64,000 nucleotides of DNA from a phage. A program made the position numbers and the translations under genes. The stretch is from sequence record PZ179882.1. One strand, 5' to 3'. The notes beneath the pieces are model-generated. The model saw only the letters and a list, made by a program, of their open reading frames with translations, had not been told where the DNA came from and ran no database searches. Positions 1 through 41,939 of the stretch are shown here, in pieces (position 1 is the first letter of the stretch; each line of letters opens with the position of its first letter).

Positions 1-1185
1 TGATTCAAGAATAAATCCACCTGCTTTAGTAGGGTCTTTACGGTGAGGATAAATTCCTACAATTTTTAAATCAACATCAATTACTTCTTTAAATTTATAA
101 AGATTTTTTGAACGAGCATTTTCCCACAATCCATCGGTATTTTTGAGAATAATACCTTCAAGACCTTGGTCAATATATTTTTTATAAATTACCTTAGCTT
201 CATCTAGGTTATTTACTACTTGGTTTTCAATTAAAATTACTTTATCATATCCTGATGTCATTTGTTCTAGTTTAGAAAAACGTACATCATATTTTAAACG
301 AAACGCCGGAAGACCGTATATTTCTACCAACGGAACATAATCCCAGACCTGAAACTTCATGCATTTGGCTTCTTTTTCTGAAATAGTTCCCTTTAAAGAT
401 TTATTGGCGATTCCATTAGAAGCAGTACGAGATTCAGCTACTTCGGCAAACTCTTTAGCTTTACTATTTTCAGGAGCATCAAAAAGAAAATCTAGGCCTT
501 CTGGTTCCTTTTCAACTTGCTCATGGTATACCAATTCGCCATCGATTAACACGCCTTCTGGATGAATCTGGCGGGCTTCAGCAGTCATTTTGATTAACTC
601 TTCCTTAAGAAGATCTAATCCTAGGTATTCATTGCCAGCTCGCGATAAAAGACGAACATCATCTAATTCATCACCTCGGACTTCAGCAAAACACCGAGCT
701 CCATCTGCTTTTAACTGTGCAAAAGCTGGAAATTTTATATTCTTACTAATGCCTTTTTCATCATAAGAACTTGCCAGCATTTGAGGTTGTTCAGGAATTA
801 AACCTGGCCAAACTTTGTTTGCAATAGATACTGAAGCACCACATTCAAGGTCTCGCATCATAACTCGACGCAAAACTTCAACATCATCCTTTTTACCATC
901 GGTGATATAACCAGTTAATTCCTCAATTGCTGCATTGCCAGTTAATTTCCGAGTAGCTAACGTGAATTCAATGAAGTCAAGCATATCGGTAATAGTCAGC
1001 ATTCCAAAACTCTGGGTAGCAATACCAGGTTTAGGCCATTTCTTGATATAATACTGTAACCCACGAGAATAAGTCAGACGATATACTCGTTTAAGCAATT
1101 CATTATCTTTATTCTTTTCAAGAATTGCTTGCTTCTGTTTAGTTGATCCAATAGATGCTATTTCATTCAGAATTTTAAGAATCAT
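1..1185 (-). CDS. 30: ATP-dependent DNA ligase gp30, N-terminal ~395 codons (C-terminus lies beyond window start)
   Basis: Minus-strand ATG at 1185 reads MILKILNEIAS...; frame stays open to position 1 (…TKAGGFILES); matches T4 ligase from memory. Confidence 0.93.
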   Translation of the reverse strand, partial: MILKILNEIASIGSTKQKQAILEKNKDNELLKRVYRLTYSRGLQYYIKKWPKPGIATQSFGMLTITDMLDFIEFTLATRKLTGNAAIEELTGYITDGKKDDVEVLRRVMMRDLECGASVSIANKVWPGLIPEQPQMLASSYDEKGISKNIKFPAFAQLKADGARCFAEVRGDELDDVRLLSRAGNEYLGLDLLKEELIKMTAEARQIHPEGVLIDGELVYHEQVEKEPEGLDFLFDAPENSKAKEFAEVAESRTASNGIANKSLKGTISEKEAKCMKFQVWDYVPLVEIYGLPAFRLKYDVRFSKLEQMTSGYDKVILIENQVVNNLDEAKVIYKKYIDQGLEGIILKNTDGLWENARSKNLYKFKEVIDVDLKIVGIYPHRKDPTKAGGFILES

Positions 1186-1451
1186 TGCTCATCCTTCAAG
1201 GTTTGGTTTACAGCTCTATTATAAATCAATTCATCATTAAGCTCAGGCAAAGACCTATGATATGTAGTTCTAACTTTATTTCCTTGCATCCAGTGCTTGA
1301 CGTAAATGAAACCTTGCTCTACACATTTTTTAAAAATTCGTTCGTCTTTTTGAGCTCGGAATTCTGGATTGCATCTAAAAAATTGATTTACGTGACCGTA
1401 ATCACGTGTAGTATTACCTTCATTTTCATAAATAGTATGAACAACAAACAT
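1182..1451 (-). CDS. hypothetical protein, 89 aa (30.1 slot)
   Basis: Track ORF; stop overlaps ligase start; position matches T4 30.1. Confidence 0.55.
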   Translation of the reverse strand: MFVVHTIYENEGNTTRDYGHVNQFFRCNPEFRAQKDERIFKKCVEQGFIYVKHWMQGNKVRTTYHRSLPELNDELIYNRAVNQTLKDEQ

Positions 1452-2290
1452 TAGAATGCTCCTTGAAAAATATTATCACCACTAGTAGGTCTATTATACA
1501 AATACTCTATGCCACCAGGTTTAATATAGTTCCATGTCTGAAACGGATGTGTCTGATATGGATGATATGGATGATTATAAGGATTAAATCCAGGCGTTCT
1601 CCAGGTAGTATTCCAAGGAAAAGAATTGTTTTTAACCATTTTCTCAATTGCATCTTTTATAGCTTTTTCACTATCAAAACTTTCTTTATTTTCCTTTGAT
1701 GAAAAAAGCTTATTTTCTACATCATTCCATGTATAAACTCGCTGCGCAGTTTTTGGAATATTGTCACGCTCTCCTCGAGCCATCCAATAAACTGGAACAT
1801 TTAATATTTCACTCGCATGATCGCAGTGATGAGCGAGATCGTCAATATAACAAATTACGTTATATTTCTCTTTTGCCTTTTTGAACAGCTCTTCTTTTGA
1901 AGAATCATGACCACACATCATTACTTCTGAGAAGGCACCAGGAAAAAGAGCATTCAAATTAAATTGACGATTCAACAGAGCGTCAATAGAATCACCCAAT
2001 GCTGTAACAGCTACAAAATTATAATCTTCTTTTAATTTGTTAATTACACACAGGGCATCTTTATACGGAGACAAGTAACGAATAAAATCTGAACGATTGT
2101 ATTTTTCAATTAACTTGACGCCAAGTTCTTCGTCACAATTAAAGAGTTTACCAGGAGAAATAAATTTCTCATCTTGGATCATTTTTAAAATATGTTCTAA
2201 TGGAAGATTATATTTCTGAGCAAAATAAGGAAGGCCTGATTGCCAGCTTAAACATACTCCATCAATATCAGTTAAAATAGTAGGCTTCAT
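1451..2290 (-). CDS. HAD-superfamily phosphatase-like protein, 279 aa, with Pro/Tyr/His-rich C-terminal tail (30.2 slot)
   Basis: N-terminal ILTDIDGV motif (HAD motif I); C-terminal NPYNHPYHPYQTHPFQ low-complexity segment. Confidence 0.65.
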   Translation of the reverse strand: MKPTILTDIDGVCLSWQSGLPYFAQKYNLPLEHILKMIQDEKFISPGKLFNCDEELGVKLIEKYNRSDFIRYLSPYKDALCVINKLKEDYNFVAVTALGDSIDALLNRQFNLNALFPGAFSEVMMCGHDSSKEELFKKAKEKYNVICYIDDLAHHCDHASEILNVPVYWMARGERDNIPKTAQRVYTWNDVENKLFSSKENKESFDSEKAIKDAIEKMVKNNSFPWNTTWRTPGFNPYNHPYHPYQTHPFQTWNYIKPGGIEYLYNRPTSGDNIFQGAF

Positions 2291-37363: not shown

Positions 37364-37412
37364 TTTTTGTATCTCCGGGTTGTTTGTTTCAGTTCATTTA
37401 TTTGATAGTTGT

Positions 37413-37442
37413 ATAGTACCACAGTATGCTTTGGTTGTAAAC
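37413..37442 (-). promoter_or_regulatory. T4-type early promoter (-35 GTTTAC, 18 nt, TGGTACTAT)
   Basis: Minus strand GTTTACaaccaaagcatactgTGGTACTAT + conserved leader ACAACTATC. Confidence 0.5.
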
Positions 37443-39276: not shown

Positions 39277-39357
39277 TCACTGGCGTCCGAAGACGCCTTT
39301 AGTTTTAAGATTGTTACGATAGAACTGCATTACATGTTCGTTATGGAAATTACTCAT
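39277..39357 (-). CDS. stp: Stp peptide (suppressor of three-prime phosphatase; PrrC-EcoprrI effector), 26 aa
   Basis: Translates [26 protein letters not shown]; ATG overlaps ndd stop. Confidence 0.8.
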
Positions 39358-39812
39358 TAATATGCCTGCAAAACAAATTTAAAGTTATCAGCCAACATAC
39401 GATTCATTTCTTCAAGCGTTTGATACTCAGAATGATGATTACGAGTAAACGCTAAAGCTAACTGACCTTTTCCAAATCCCGTCGTCAGAGGTTTCATCTT
39501 AGAAGCAGGTAGATAAAATACCGTGTATGGAACATTGTTATTTGCAATAGTACGCGCAAGCTGAGATCGACGCTGGCGAATATGACTTAGAACTGCACTG
39601 AATCCTTGCTTAGAACGCTGATTACCTACATAAAATCGTGCAGATACACACGGACTATCAAATGGACCACCAAATTTGCTCACTAAAAAGTAAAATCCAG
39701 GTTTAGATAAAATATCTTTATGCGGAGTTCCCAAAAACCACTCACCGCCCTTGATTGTACCAATAACAGTAGCGCCTGCGTTGTTCAGATCAGTAACAGT
39801 CATGTATTTCAT
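39357..39812 (-). CDS. ndd: nucleoid disruption protein Ndd, 151 aa
   Basis: [33 protein letters not shown]… matches T4 Ndd; start at Met 19 of track ORF. Confidence 0.9.
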
Positions 39813-39870
39813 ATTAATTTCCTCTAAATTATTTTCTACTCCATGGCCGCATGAATACGCGGCCATTAAA

Positions 39871-40086
39871 TTAATCGTCGCAGTCGACGCTCAATTCCCA
39901 AAACTCTTCTACAGTATAAGTTTCAGTATCATTTTCAATACAGAAACGTTCATTACTGTTATTTGCTAAAGTAGCATTAACTGTCGGTTTCTCGTTAGTG
40001 CTCTTAAGAGGTGAAATACGAATTAACTGATCACCGTTATCTAAACAAAAAATTTCACCAACTTTTACATCTTTAAAACTTTTCAT
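39871..40086 (-). CDS. hypothetical protein, 71 aa (ndd.1 slot)
   Basis: Track ORF. Confidence 0.5.
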
Positions 40087-40094
40087 AATTCACC

Positions 40095-40202
40095 TCAAGG
40101 AGTATAAAATCCAAACGCAGTTGTTGACCATCCCATCCAATATGGGAAATTTGCACCAATGTAAAACATAAGAATATAAAACCAAATGCTTAGTAAATTC
40201 AT
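40095..40202 (-). CDS. tiny hydrophobic peptide, 35 aa
   Basis: MNLLSIWFYILMFYIGANFPYWMGW…; start overlaps upstream stop; no clear SD. Confidence 0.35.
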   Translation of the reverse strand: MNLLSIWFYILMFYIGANFPYWMGWSTTAFGFYTP

Positions 40203-40420
40203 CATTTTACACCATTCCAAATTGTTTCAACCACAGATTTTAAACCATTTTGATGAATATCAATTCCGACTACTGTCATCAAATAGATTCCAACTACAAC
40301 TGAACCTAAGGCAAAAATCAGCATGAAAATGAATAAAGCCGGAAAAATATTATCGAAAAACCACTCAATAAATGTAAAAGCACTGCGTTTACGCTTCATA
40401 TTTTCCTCACATAAATCCAA
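40202..40420 (-). CDS. small membrane protein, 72 aa
   Basis: Track ORF; two hydrophobic segments. Confidence 0.55.
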   Translation of the reverse strand: MDLCEENMKRKRSAFTFIEWFFDNIFPALFIFMLIFALGSVVVGIYLMTVVGIDIHQNGLKSVVETIWNGVK

Positions 40421-40520
40421 AGTAAACGTTTAATACATCAATCATTAAAACGATTGGGAATATACTCAAAACTATTAGTATTATAACTACATTCCATATA
40501 GCTTTAACAATCTTTTTCAT
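40407..40520 (-). CDS. tiny membrane peptide, 37 aa
   Basis: MKKIVKAIWNVVIILIVLSIFPIVLMIDVL…; lies just downstream of early promoter cassette; track ORF N-terminal extension judged spurious. Confidence 0.45.
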   Translation of the reverse strand: MKKIVKAIWNVVIILIVLSIFPIVLMIDVLNVYFGFM

Positions 40521-40534
40521 TTTCTGTTCTTCCG

Positions 40535-40578
40535 TAGTTGATAGTTGTATAGTACCACGGAAGAACAGTCTTGTAAAC
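40535..40578 (-). promoter_or_regulatory. T4-type early promoter with conserved leader (PeSL-like cassette copy)
   Basis: Minus strand GTTTACaagactgttcttccgTGGTACTATACAACTATCAACTAC. Confidence 0.5.
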
Positions 40579-40585
40579 AACTTTT

Positions 40586-40684
40586 TTAAAAATATTCGTA
40601 ATAAATGTGAATACCAACTACTACCGCTGAAACCTGTGCAACCCACCACGCACAAGCAATAAGTACAGAATTCAAAATTTTCAT
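40586..40684 (-). CDS. tiny membrane peptide, 32 aa
   Basis: GAGG SD then MKILNSVLIACAWWVAQVSAVVVGIHIYYEYF. Confidence 0.4.
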   Translation of the reverse strand: MKILNSVLIACAWWVAQVSAVVVGIHIYYEYF

Positions 40685-40767
40685 AATAACCTCATCACAA
40701 AAGTAAATGTTAAACAAATTACTGGAATACTAATTAACCAAACAAAACACCACCATAATGAACTCAT
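40681..40767 (-). CDS. tiny membrane peptide, 28 aa
   Basis: MSSLWWCFVWLISIPVICLTFTFVMRLL; ATGA overlaps on both sides. Confidence 0.4.
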   Translation of the reverse strand: MSSLWWCFVWLISIPVICLTFTFVMRLL

Positions 40768-41027
40768 AGTTCAATCTCAATGATTTCAAGATTATTTTCT
40801 TTAATAGCTTTCTTTAAATCATCGTAAATAAGAACTTCCCAAGAATTGTTTAAATCACCATTCAACAAACGCTCTTGTTGCAATTTATCAGTAAGATATG
40901 GTTGGTCTGATTCATATTTAGACAATCCCAATGAAATAAATGATGTTGCATCGTCAATTTCAGAATATTGTACATGAACAAATTCACCTGTGATTTTATG
41001 TTTAACATAAAAGAATTTAAATTTCAT
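40764..41027 (-). CDS. hypothetical protein, 87 aa
   Basis: Track ORF preceded by early promoter cassette. Confidence 0.55.
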   Translation of the reverse strand: MKFKFFYVKHKITGEFVHVQYSEIDDATSFISLGLSKYESDQPYLTDKLQQERLLNGDLNNSWEVLIYDDLKKAIKENNLEIIEIEL

Positions 41028-41039
41028 TTTTGTTCCTCT

Positions 41040-41084
41040 GTAGTTGATAGTTGTATAGTACCACGGTCCTTGTAGTATGTAAAC
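41040..41084 (-). promoter_or_regulatory. T4-type early promoter with conserved leader (PeSL-like cassette copy)
   Basis: Minus strand GTTTACatactacaaggaccgTGGTACTATACAACTATCAACTAC then SD and ATG at 41027. Confidence 0.5.
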
Positions 41085-41100
41085 TAGTTTATGAAATTTT

Positions 41101-41658
41101 TTAGATGGAAAGATACCATCCGTTGTAGTTGCTTTTTCGCACTACCTTACGAAGGTCTTCTCTATCACCAATGAACTTCGGAGTGTACTGGATGACACCT
41201 GGATGAATTTCTTTAGTGTTGAATATAATTATACAGTCCGCGACTTGATGATTCAGAATGGGCCCTAGATTTATTCCAGAACCATATGGATACTCTCCGC
41301 TGCATCCTGTTGTTACCGAAATCCAACGTGAGTCAGTTTGATGGGTTTTGACTTCTACGCGAAGTCCGCAGTATCTTGGGTGCGCCAATACATCCCATGC
41401 ATATGTATACGGGTCATTAACATCCTCTTGGCCTTTGTTAACATACCCGCTCAGCCAATCTGCTACAAAAAACTCTGCATACACAGCGATACGGCATCTT
41501 TCGATGACTTCTGCTTTATCCTGATTAGGATTTTGTTTTAAAGAGTATCTTGCTGTATCAGCAATTTTGACCTTCATTTCACTAGTCAAATCATTGTTCG
41601 ATAGGGTAAATGTCGGAATCTGAAATAGTCTCTGTAAACCTGGATTCGTTTTCTGCAT
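41101..41658 (-). CDS. denB: endonuclease IV, 185 aa
   Basis: 185-aa ORF directly after rIIB/denB.1 as in T4. Confidence 0.8.
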   Translation of the reverse strand: MQKTNPGLQRLFQIPTFTLSNNDLTSEMKVKIADTARYSLKQNPNQDKAEVIERCRIAVYAEFFVADWLSGYVNKGQEDVNDPYTYAWDVLAHPRYCGLRVEVKTHQTDSRWISVTTGCSGEYPYGSGINLGPILNHQVADCIIIFNTKEIHPGVIQYTPKFIGDREDLRKVVRKSNYNGWYLSI

Positions 41659-41723
41659 TAAACTTTCCTTTTACGTCGGAATCACTGATATTCATATAAT
41701 AAATCATAGTTTCTCTTAAAACA

Positions 41724-41741
41724 AAAGGGCCGAAGCCCTTT
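41724..41741 (-). terminator. GC hairpin (AGGGC-TTCG-GCCCT) + U-run after 64-aa ORF
   Basis: Hairpin followed by TTTTGTTTT on minus strand; near-identical hairpin at 41954..41970. Confidence 0.5.
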
Positions 41742-41744
41742 ACT

Positions 41745-41939
41745 TTATTTGAATTGTGCAATTCTTTTTTCTAAACAATCTGCATAAGATTTCATTGAGA
41801 TGAACTGTGAAAGCAGTAATTCTTGCTCAACTGCATTAACCGTTGAAAACTTTTCACTTTCTAAAAATTTGCTCAATGCATTAATTTTGAGCATTAATTG
41901 ATCGTATTCTTCTTTTACTCGTGCTTGATAACCTAACAT
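41745..41939 (-). CDS. hypothetical protein, 64 aa (denB.1 slot)
   Basis: Track ORF; AAGGAAA SD. Confidence 0.55.
   Translation of the reverse strand: MLGYQARVKEEYDQLMLKINALSKFLESEKFSTVNAVEQELLLSQFISMKSYADCLEKRIAQFK

Follow-up and report, generated by a model that had tools for sequence, protein, structure and literature searches.

The DNA analysed here, a stretch of 64,000 nucleotides from a phage (sequence record PZ179882.1, called the window in what follows, with positions counted from its first letter), carries on its minus strand three very short open reading frames (ORFs), which encode 28, 32 and 37 amino acids (aa), are situated at 40681..40767, 40586..40684 and 40407..40520, and all start with ATG, exactly as an initial annotation had described them. 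By amino-acid identity and gene order they are the orthologues of ndd.6, ndd.5 and ndd.4, genes long annotated in T4 and thus already known. Taken together, the evidence makes it probable that they are genuine early membrane micro-genes arranged in two units. The two expression units are a chain of overlapping genes, formed by an 87-aa gene, ndd.6 and ndd.5, and a separate ndd.4, and there is no coupled triplet. The observation made in the initial annotation is therefore confirmed in part and its interpretation partly supported: the peptides appear real and membrane-directed, but they belong to known genes and do not form the proposed triplet.

Identity and conservation of the three peptides

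The 1.4 kb around the ORFs matched 521 phage records at 92–99.6% identity, nearly all of them from Tequatrovirus (T4-like) and the best one being phage sutha; by these matches, the window is DNA of a T4-like phage. The three peptides share 97–100% of their amino acids with those of T4. Ndd.6 (MSSLWWCFVWLISIPVICLTFTFVMRLL, 28 aa) and Ndd.5 are 100% identical to their T4 counterparts, while Ndd.4 (MKKIVKAIWNVVIILIVLSIFPIVLMIDVLNVYFGFM, 37 aa) is 97% identical, the T4 entries being, for ndd.6, ndd.5 and ndd.4 respectively, T4p275, T4p274 and T4p273 in NC_000866 and P39248, P39247 and P39249 in UniProt. Common to both phages are also the slot between denB and ndd, the strand, the gene order, the ATGA overlap of ndd.6 and ndd.5 and the promoter-hairpin before ndd.4. 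As regards family membership, Ndd.6 matches phrog_8851 (E = 1.6e-17 over 1–28 of 28) and lies in synteny between denB and ndd, overlapping its upstream gene; Ndd.5 matches phrog_5011 (E = 3.6e-26 over 1–32 of 32); and Ndd.4 matches phrog_3098 (E = 2.9e-21 over 1–37 of 37) and sits after the promoter and hairpin, upstream of ndd.3/2a. That the ORFs belong to the stretch between ndd and denB in a phage related to T4, as proposed at the outset, is borne out by the T4 annotation. The further suggestion that these micro-proteins had been overlooked is refuted by that same annotation (NC_000866), by the existence of PHROGs 8851, 5011 and 3098, and by a published T4 table which carries ndd.4, ndd.5 and ndd.6 with their UniProt accessions (PMC9697503 supplement).

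Each peptide contains one segment resembling a transmembrane helix, as had been noted, with best 19-residue Kyte-Doolittle means of 2.33 (Ndd.6), 2.17 (Ndd.5) and 3.06 (Ndd.4), and tryptophan occurs three times in Ndd.6, twice in Ndd.5 and once in Ndd.4. However, among the 197 ATG-initiated ORFs with 25–45 aa that the window contains, 17 passed the hydrophobicity cut-off, as against 5.6 ± 2.8 in shuffled sequences, and nine of the 17 lie on the opposite strand. With 17 such micro-ORFs present, the evidence for coding is conservation and not hydrophobicity. In this context, the first explanation to be weighed is that the ORFs are not meaningful peptides at all, being either chance hydrophobic ORFs of AT-rich DNA, a common noise as the above count illustrates, or ribosome relays or leaders whose amino-acid sequence is irrelevant.

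Selection was assessed on 18 Tequatrovirus sequences and on summary statistics of BLAST tables; in addition, IMG/VR supplied eight DenB loci, and an exact-pattern scan for the 3' end of ndd.5 returned five of the same contigs only. Ndd.4 is 59–61% identical in Bp7 (Dhakavirus), Pectobacterium phage PM2 and a lineage with no more than 45% identity in DenB, Mosugukvirus being included, and in the 45%-DenB lineage it is thus better conserved than DenB. Across genera the synonymous sites of ndd.4 are saturated, the proportion of synonymous differences per site (pS) being 0.67–0.82 versus 0.19–0.25 for the non-synonymous ones (pN). The family is a narrow one: at 50% identity, 1.84 billion representatives contain no more than 6 clusters of it. 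Homologues of Ndd.6, of 28–29 aa, are found in RB69 (Mosigvirus), in Bp7 and in three metagenomic T4-like lineages, two of them with a DenB about 61% identical and one with a DenB 45% identical to that of this phage. In their alignment the residues M1, S3, W6, W10, I14, P15 and I17 are invariant across lineages, giving the motif W..(x3)W..(x3)IP.I. The tblastn search with Ndd.6 gave 648 records, 154 of them below 60% identity; between genera, pS was 0.51–0.65 versus a pN of 0.28–0.37, and within Tequatrovirus the synonymous and non-synonymous changes numbered 5 and 4, with a per-site ratio of 0.18.

The record of ndd.5 is that of a single genus. At no less than 90% amino-acid identity over at least 80% of the length, Ndd.5 was matched in 491 records, all of them Tequatrovirus, and the 18 sequences contain 7 synonymous versus 6 non-synonymous changes over 20.7 versus 75.3 sites (ratio 0.24), with 8 of the 13 variable sites at third codon positions. 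The mean divergence, our own calculation from evenly spaced samples of about 490 records, amounts to some 2.8 nucleotide differences per 96 nt versus some 0.6 amino-acid differences per 32 aa, which indicates purifying selection on the putative peptide. No stop codon interrupts ndd.6, ndd.5 or ndd.4 in any of the 18 genomes, and the ndd.5–ndd.4 spacer accepts in relatives insertions and deletions of +1 or -1, not multiples of three, between ORFs which stay in frame. The conservation of reading frames in relatives, on which the initial annotation had made its proposal depend, was therefore found. In RB69 the slot of ndd.5 is filled by a 36-aa hydrophobic ORF with the same GAGG-N5-ATGA junction, present at full length in 153 records, all of RB69 type by the names shown.

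Several results weigh against genuine coding and should be considered together. In ndd.4, variation within Tequatrovirus is slight and consists of 2 synonymous versus 5 non-synonymous changes, the latter conservative, so that the case for coding has to be made from the comparison between genera. In rare instances the ORFs are disrupted, ndd.6 by a GG insertion at its 3' end in one metagenomic genome and ndd.5 by the loss of 2 nt in phage Pu-Krd-SF7. Ndd.5 had no detectable homologue outside Tequatrovirus in the record search that gave the 491 matches, and BLASTP of Ndd.5 versus the slot ORF of RB69 (Mosigvirus) gave no alignment. In the T4 table cited above, Ndd.4, Ndd.5 and Ndd.6 are without a protein class, which we read as undetected by mass spectrometry (MS), while Ndd and Ndd.1 were detected, Ndd.1 as early (PMC9697503 supplement); and a literature search for ribosome profiling of T4 found no such study. 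As for MS, non-detection is to be expected of peptides which are tiny, hydrophobic and without tryptic sites.

The lack of MS detection and the lack of a fitness effect on knock-down (see below) speak for meaningless ORFs, and the restriction of ndd.5 to one genus, with an unrelated ORF in the Mosigvirus slot, fits the idea that only the slot matters and not the peptide. Nevertheless, chance ORFs or mere relays do not account for amino acids kept despite synonymous saturation (in ndd.4 and, less so, in ndd.6), for motifs of Ndd.6 and Ndd.4 invariant across genera, for non-synonymous to synonymous per-site ratios which, inside Tequatrovirus, are near 0.2 in both ndd.6 and ndd.5, or for an ndd.5 matched in 491 records and three ORFs free of stops in 18 genomes though the spacer takes ±1 indels. 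We regard meaningless ORFs as a very unlikely explanation, and genuine, selected peptides as the preferred one.

The start of ndd.4 deserves separate mention. The annotated Ndd.4 of T4 has 42 aa, beginning at an ATG made by a T4-specific C→T change (T4 166749–166764, corresponding to 40520..40535 of the window). Since every one of the 13 further phages in the comparison has ACG at that position, it is the second ATG that represents the conserved start, which gives 37 aa; it is preceded by the Shine-Dalgarno sequence GGAAG in this phage and GGAGG elsewhere. A different proposal would make the true gene an 82-aa ORF starting with TTG (40407..40655; '5.0 kDa protein', phrog_28140), which runs across ndd.5 and ndd.4 and would have Ndd.4 as its C-terminus. 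This ORF is called in the window, phage Lv5cm annotates an 80-aa coding sequence there, phrog_28140 (80 positions) matches ndd.4 at its positions 44–80, and an 80-aa cluster representative exists. However, its N-terminal half extends through promoter and hairpin and shares DNA with ndd.5 in a different frame, and distant Ndd.4 homologues have 36–40 aa with their own Shine-Dalgarno. Moreover, the 82-aa frame is broken by +1/-1 spacer indels (four in an A-run, one just upstream of the ndd.4 ATG) in 5 of the 18 aligned phages, all with ndd.5 and ndd.4 intact. The 82-aa ORF was rejected on account of these indels, and the chance that it is the real gene is negligible.

Two expression units and the hairpin before ndd.4

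Translational coupling of all three ORFs through ATGA overlaps had been proposed, and such overlaps are present in part of the array only. One exists between ndd.6 and ndd.5 (40681..40684), and a further one, between the 87-aa gene and ndd.6 (40764..40767), extends the chain upstream; both fit a stop/start overlap, which is kept in RB69, Bp7 and the locus L012. No such overlap joins ndd.5 to ndd.4, which are parted by 65 nt of non-coding DNA (40521..40585) holding an early promoter and a hairpin. It is because of this spacer that we speak of a putatively coupled pair and a separate gene.

In the first unit, an early promoter (TTTACA-17-TACTAT with TG, 41055..41083, minus strand), located by consensus scan and with a homologous site annotated in SA21RB, would drive the gene for a soluble acidic protein of 87 aa (40764..41027, minus strand; phrog_2390 by PHROG match), then ndd.6 and then ndd.5, the three being chained by ATGA stop/start overlaps. 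This promoter is without a hairpin (z = 0.2). The Shine-Dalgarno of ndd.5, GAGG, lies inside ndd.6, 5 nt before an ATG which overlaps the ndd.6 stop, and that of ndd.6 itself is weak (GAG). In every lineage examined ndd.6 overlaps the stop of an upstream translated ORF or lies no more than 9 nt from it, although the partner changes: it is the 87-aa gene here and in RB69 (ATGA overlap), an orf87 homologue in Bp7 (TTGA), and unrelated genes of 64 and 69 aa in two metagenomic lineages. The homologues of ndd.6 in Bp7 and L012 begin with TTG, and even so their starts overlap the stop of the ORF before them. These arrangements suggest that ndd.6 would be translated mainly by termination-reinitiation from the upstream ORF.

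While the 87-aa gene is complete in this phage, T4 keeps only its last 8 codons. In fact, the DNA regarded as intergenic between denB and ndd.6 in T4 corresponds to an in-frame deletion of the 87-aa gene between AAATGAAA repeats (at the gene start and at Met80), and the remnant is an 8-codon ORF, MKIAEIEL, with the original Shine-Dalgarno and still overlapping the ndd.6 start (T4 locus L004, 4990..5110). T2-type phages have in the same slot a different gene, of 68 aa, with the same last eight codons (L017, 960..1012). As a separate observation, phages in which the adjoining ndd.6 is 93–100% identical show no more than about 52% identity in the 87-aa protein, which comes in at least three allele types; all that these have in common is MKFKF(F/Y)Y.KHKIT at the N-terminus and EIEL at the C-terminus. 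This variation looks like allelic replacement or diversifying selection, to judge from the protein comparison.

In the second unit, another early promoter of the same sequence (TTTACA-17-TACTAT with TG, 40549..40577, minus strand; consensus scan, with an equivalent annotated in SA21RB), situated in a 15-bp hairpin with a 15-nt loop, would serve ndd.4, the ndd.3/2a fusion, ndd.2, ndd.1 and ndd. The hairpin (40524..40568, minus strand; inverted repeat I3) has a minimum free energy of -23.2 kcal/mol (z = -4.8). Its 5' arm and loop contain the promoter's -10 element and its 3' arm the Shine-Dalgarno of ndd.4. With the -10 element so placed, transcripts should start near 40541–40543 and therefore lack the 5' arm. 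On this layout, the hairpin would hide the ribosome-binding site of ndd.4 in read-through RNA coming from the first unit, and the RNA from the internal promoter, devoid of the 5' arm, would be the one that expresses ndd.4. Comparison of 14 phages showed the hairpin paired in 98.6% of cells; its three variable internal pairs stay paired (U-A, U·G, C-G), and the terminal closing pair alone breaks, in 3 phages. What speaks against a selected structure is that covariation was not significant in these 14 closely related sequences, 153–186 of 500 shuffles having matched the observed values. The sample being too shallow, the pairing is counted as consistent with the hairpin and not as proof of it.

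This element corresponds to the promoter-early stem-loop (PeSL) cassettes of T4-like phages, as presented in the passages on them in Arbiol et al. 2010 (PMC2839356) and Comeau et al. 2014 (PMC4122927): its promoter, TTTACA-17-TACTAT, agrees with the consensus TTTACW-N17-TAYWAT given in the latter, it is accompanied by a stable stem-loop, and it is repeated in the region. As in the PeSL described there, such repeated units border variable gene cassettes in the hyperplastic region, and the passages of Comeau et al. 2014 on the subject take this very locus, in T4 versus PST, as an example (PMC4122927). The repetition consists of a 40-nt direct repeat (40521..40560 and 41027..41066, 506 nt apart), the upstream copy of which is without a stem. 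Beyond what those published passages describe, the 3' arm holds here the ribosome-binding site of ndd.4, which suggests a translational role. Two side observations concern the 26-nt promoter core (CGTGGTACTATACAACTATCAACTAC). A third copy, with 3 mismatches, lies about 3 kb downstream (37398..37423, minus strand) and presumably represents another early promoter or PeSL. The two main copies (40534..40559 and 41040..41065) are identical in this phage, while T4 differs in the loop (TTACC versus ACAAC), which hints at gene conversion between cassettes.

Membrane location and candidate functions

The genes ndd.4–ndd.6 are immediate-early and non-essential, and each encodes one hydrophobic alpha-helix. 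In T4 their RNAs are classed 'early' (PMC9697503 supplement), the CRISPRi-ART knock-down of each of the three was scored 'Not Fit' (PMC11879866 supplement), and with the deletion saΔ9, which runs from 52.1 through denB and includes ndd.1–ndd.6, the phage yield is still some 50% of the wild-type level (PMC6071114). The roles as effectors of exclusion, ion leakage or envelope targeting which had been put forward for the peptides find no direct support in these knock-downs and this viable region-wide deletion.

Each peptide consists of a single hydrophobic stretch of 19–25 residues, which leaves space neither for a signal peptide to be cleaved off nor for a beta-barrel. The label 'outer membrane protein', attached to ndd.5 and ndd.6 in RefSeq and PHROGs, is implausible from the composition of the products, which have only 32 and 28 aa, one helix and nothing after it. 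Furthermore, the context of the nearest cysteine, P-V-I-C, differs from the lipobox L-[AS]-[GA]-C, and this cysteine is absent in the L012 homologue. An outer-membrane protein cannot be made of one helix of 28–37 aa, so that the inner membrane is where these products are expected, and they are most likely single-pass inner-membrane accessory peptides. Their insertion there would occur in the opening minutes of infection and without a signal peptidase step, and the charge distribution of Ndd.4 (MKKIVK…) and of Ndd.5 suggests for both an N-in topology.

As to what they would do there, the peptides may be small accessory factors that modulate proteins or lipids of the host membrane, with a benefit only on some hosts or under some conditions; they would be neither enzymes nor outer-membrane proteins. 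This view fits their dispensability in laboratory hosts, their narrow taxonomic range and their position among the host-interaction genes rII, denB, ndd, stp and ac. Taken by itself, the modulator role is a tentative proposal to which we give somewhat less than an even chance, and it ranks first among the modes of action considered. Bacterial small membrane-protein modulators of a like kind are AcrZ and MgrB, and the T4 products Ac (51 aa) and gp52.1 (46 aa), encoded 1.2 kb downstream in the window, are likewise very short, single-pass, hydrophobic and dispensable in the laboratory. No sequence similarity of Ndd.4–6 to Ac, gp52.1, AcrZ or MgrB was detected, and the likeness is one in kind only.

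A reading nearer to that of the initial annotation takes the peptides as membrane-damaging toxins, of the type I toxin or holin sort, which would depolarise or permeabilise the inner membrane and so contribute to host shut-off or exclusion. Small hydrophobic toxins such as TisB, IbsC and ShoB are similar to them in size and composition. Moreover, many small immediate-early genes of T4 are lethal to the host when cloned, according to a review (PMC6071114). Nevertheless, the peptides gave no match in sequence searches of Pfam, NCBIfam, PADLOC and the PDB, and the Rfam search of 39300..41800, both strands, gave none either, so that neither an antisense RNA nor an Rfam element was found at the locus on either strand. 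The promoters are early, a timing at odds with the late expression of a holin, and for the whole of early infection T4 depends on the membrane being energised; no endolysin gene adjoins the locus, the C-termini have 0–1 charged residues where a holin would have a charged tail, and loss of the genes is without measurable cost, as seen in the 'Not Fit' knock-downs. Permeabilisation of this kind is thus unlikely, and less likely than a modulator role. In the literature, our search by way of small membrane proteins and superinfection exclusion found no work on ndd.4, ndd.5 or ndd.6, and the main text of the HIDEN-SEQ preprint does not mention the ndd genes.

A more specific possibility is that at least one of Ndd.4, Ndd.5 and Ndd.6 is the unmapped early factor of T4 which sustains phospholipid synthesis in the host and stimulates that of phosphatidylglycerol (PG). 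The deletion saΔ9 abolishes the T4 stimulation of phospholipid synthesis, notably of PG; with rIIΔDD2, a deletion that overlaps saΔ9 in part and takes out denB too, the stimulation specific to PG is lost; in earlier work, a protein synthesised in the first 5 min after infection had been held responsible for the effect; and several products of the region are predicted to be membrane-located (all in the review, PMC6071114). Being early, membrane-directed and adjoining denB, ndd.4–ndd.6 would suit such a factor. The mechanism would then be that of a micro-protein binding an inner-membrane enzyme or regulator of lipid synthesis, with the synthesis of phosphatidylethanolamine declining after infection and that of PG being stimulated, a scheme we hold to be highly improbable in itself. 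However, the effect maps to about 3.4 kb with more than 12 genes, in strains carrying several other mutations; DenB, Ndd, Ac, gp52.1 and Ndd.2/2a/3 are equally possible; and no similarity to regulators of lipid metabolism was found. The odds on the ndd peptides being this factor are accordingly long, and a phospholipid role is, like that of a toxin, less likely than the modulator role.

Neighbouring genes, annotation and meaning

On the minus strand the order of genes is denB, the 87-aa gene, ndd.6, ndd.5, ndd.4, a 65-aa gene, an ORF of 35/36 aa, ndd.1 and ndd, and the homologous stretch of T4 (NC_000866) is annotated as denB, ndd.6, ndd.5, ndd.4, ndd.3, ndd.2a, ndd.2, ndd.1 and ndd. The gene denB (41101..41658) lies upstream of the 87-aa gene. 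The 65-aa gene (40202..40399, minus strand), whose product is a membrane protein with the Pfam domain DUF7248, equals ndd.3 plus ndd.2a of T4: it is whole here and in most relatives, while in T4 a 1-nt deletion splits it into ndd.3 and ndd.2a and in T2 a stop codon interrupts it. One database protein (P0003 in our set) is a natural fusion of the Ndd.4 N-terminus with the C-terminal half of this DUF7248 protein. The hydrophobic ORF that follows is ndd.2 (40095..40205, minus strand; phrog_4135), the start of which overlaps the preceding gene's stop. The initial annotation had listed it as a fourth micro-ORF at 40095..40202, and correctly so, save that the T4 version is one codon longer. Next comes ndd.1, which encodes a soluble protein of 71 aa (39871..40086, minus strand; phrog_2183) and is the last small gene before ndd. 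Between ndd.1 and ndd there is a GGCCGC–8 nt–GCGGCC hairpin (39845..39864, minus strand) with no U-tract after it, and SA21RB carries at the corresponding place the annotation of a rho-independent terminator. The ORF called for ndd has 169 aa from an upstream ATG, and the T4 start (MKYMTV…) corresponds to 39812.

The annotation of relatives contains several inconsistencies. In PST (NC_027404) ndd.4 bears the label 'naphthalene 1,2-dioxygenase', as do features under the ndd.4/5/6 matches in OP870145, OK272484 and MW749000, evidently through confusion over the acronym 'Ndd'. PST also has intact, unannotated ndd.6 and ndd.5 (L029, 1055..1141 and 1138..1236), ndd.4 being intact as well. The legend to Fig. 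6A of Comeau et al. 2014 gives for T4 and PST an exchange of ndd.4/.5 for ORF268/269 (PMC4122927). Since PST encodes intact ndd.6, ndd.5 and ndd.4, the published exchange looks instead like an indel of ORF269 and ORF268 upstream of ndd.6, and the claim appears to rest on missing annotation. RB69 (NC_004928) has an unannotated Ndd.6 homologue (L015, 1501..1587), which is ATGA-coupled to the 36-aa hydrophobic ORF (1584..1694).

The discovery value of all this is small, as the T4 map has shown these ORFs for decades, with relatives annotated inconsistently. The gain lies in evidence, drawn from several genera, that Ndd.6 and Ndd.4 at the least are real peptides under selection, in the correction of the Ndd.4 start to 37 aa instead of 42, in showing the labels 'outer membrane protein' and 'naphthalene 1,2-dioxygenase' to be mistaken, and in the demonstration that RB69 and PST carry unannotated copies. 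It also lies in a testable expression logic, in which an upstream ORF would always feed ndd.6 and a promoter-bearing hairpin would mask the ribosome-binding site of ndd.4. Since they are inside the only interval known to control the T4 effect on phospholipids, Ndd.4, Ndd.5 and Ndd.6 become specific candidates for that question. Three features chiefly give the locus its interest: the coupling of ndd.6, which is conserved, the hairpin that covers the ribosome-binding site of ndd.4, and the connection with this old, unmapped phospholipid phenotype.

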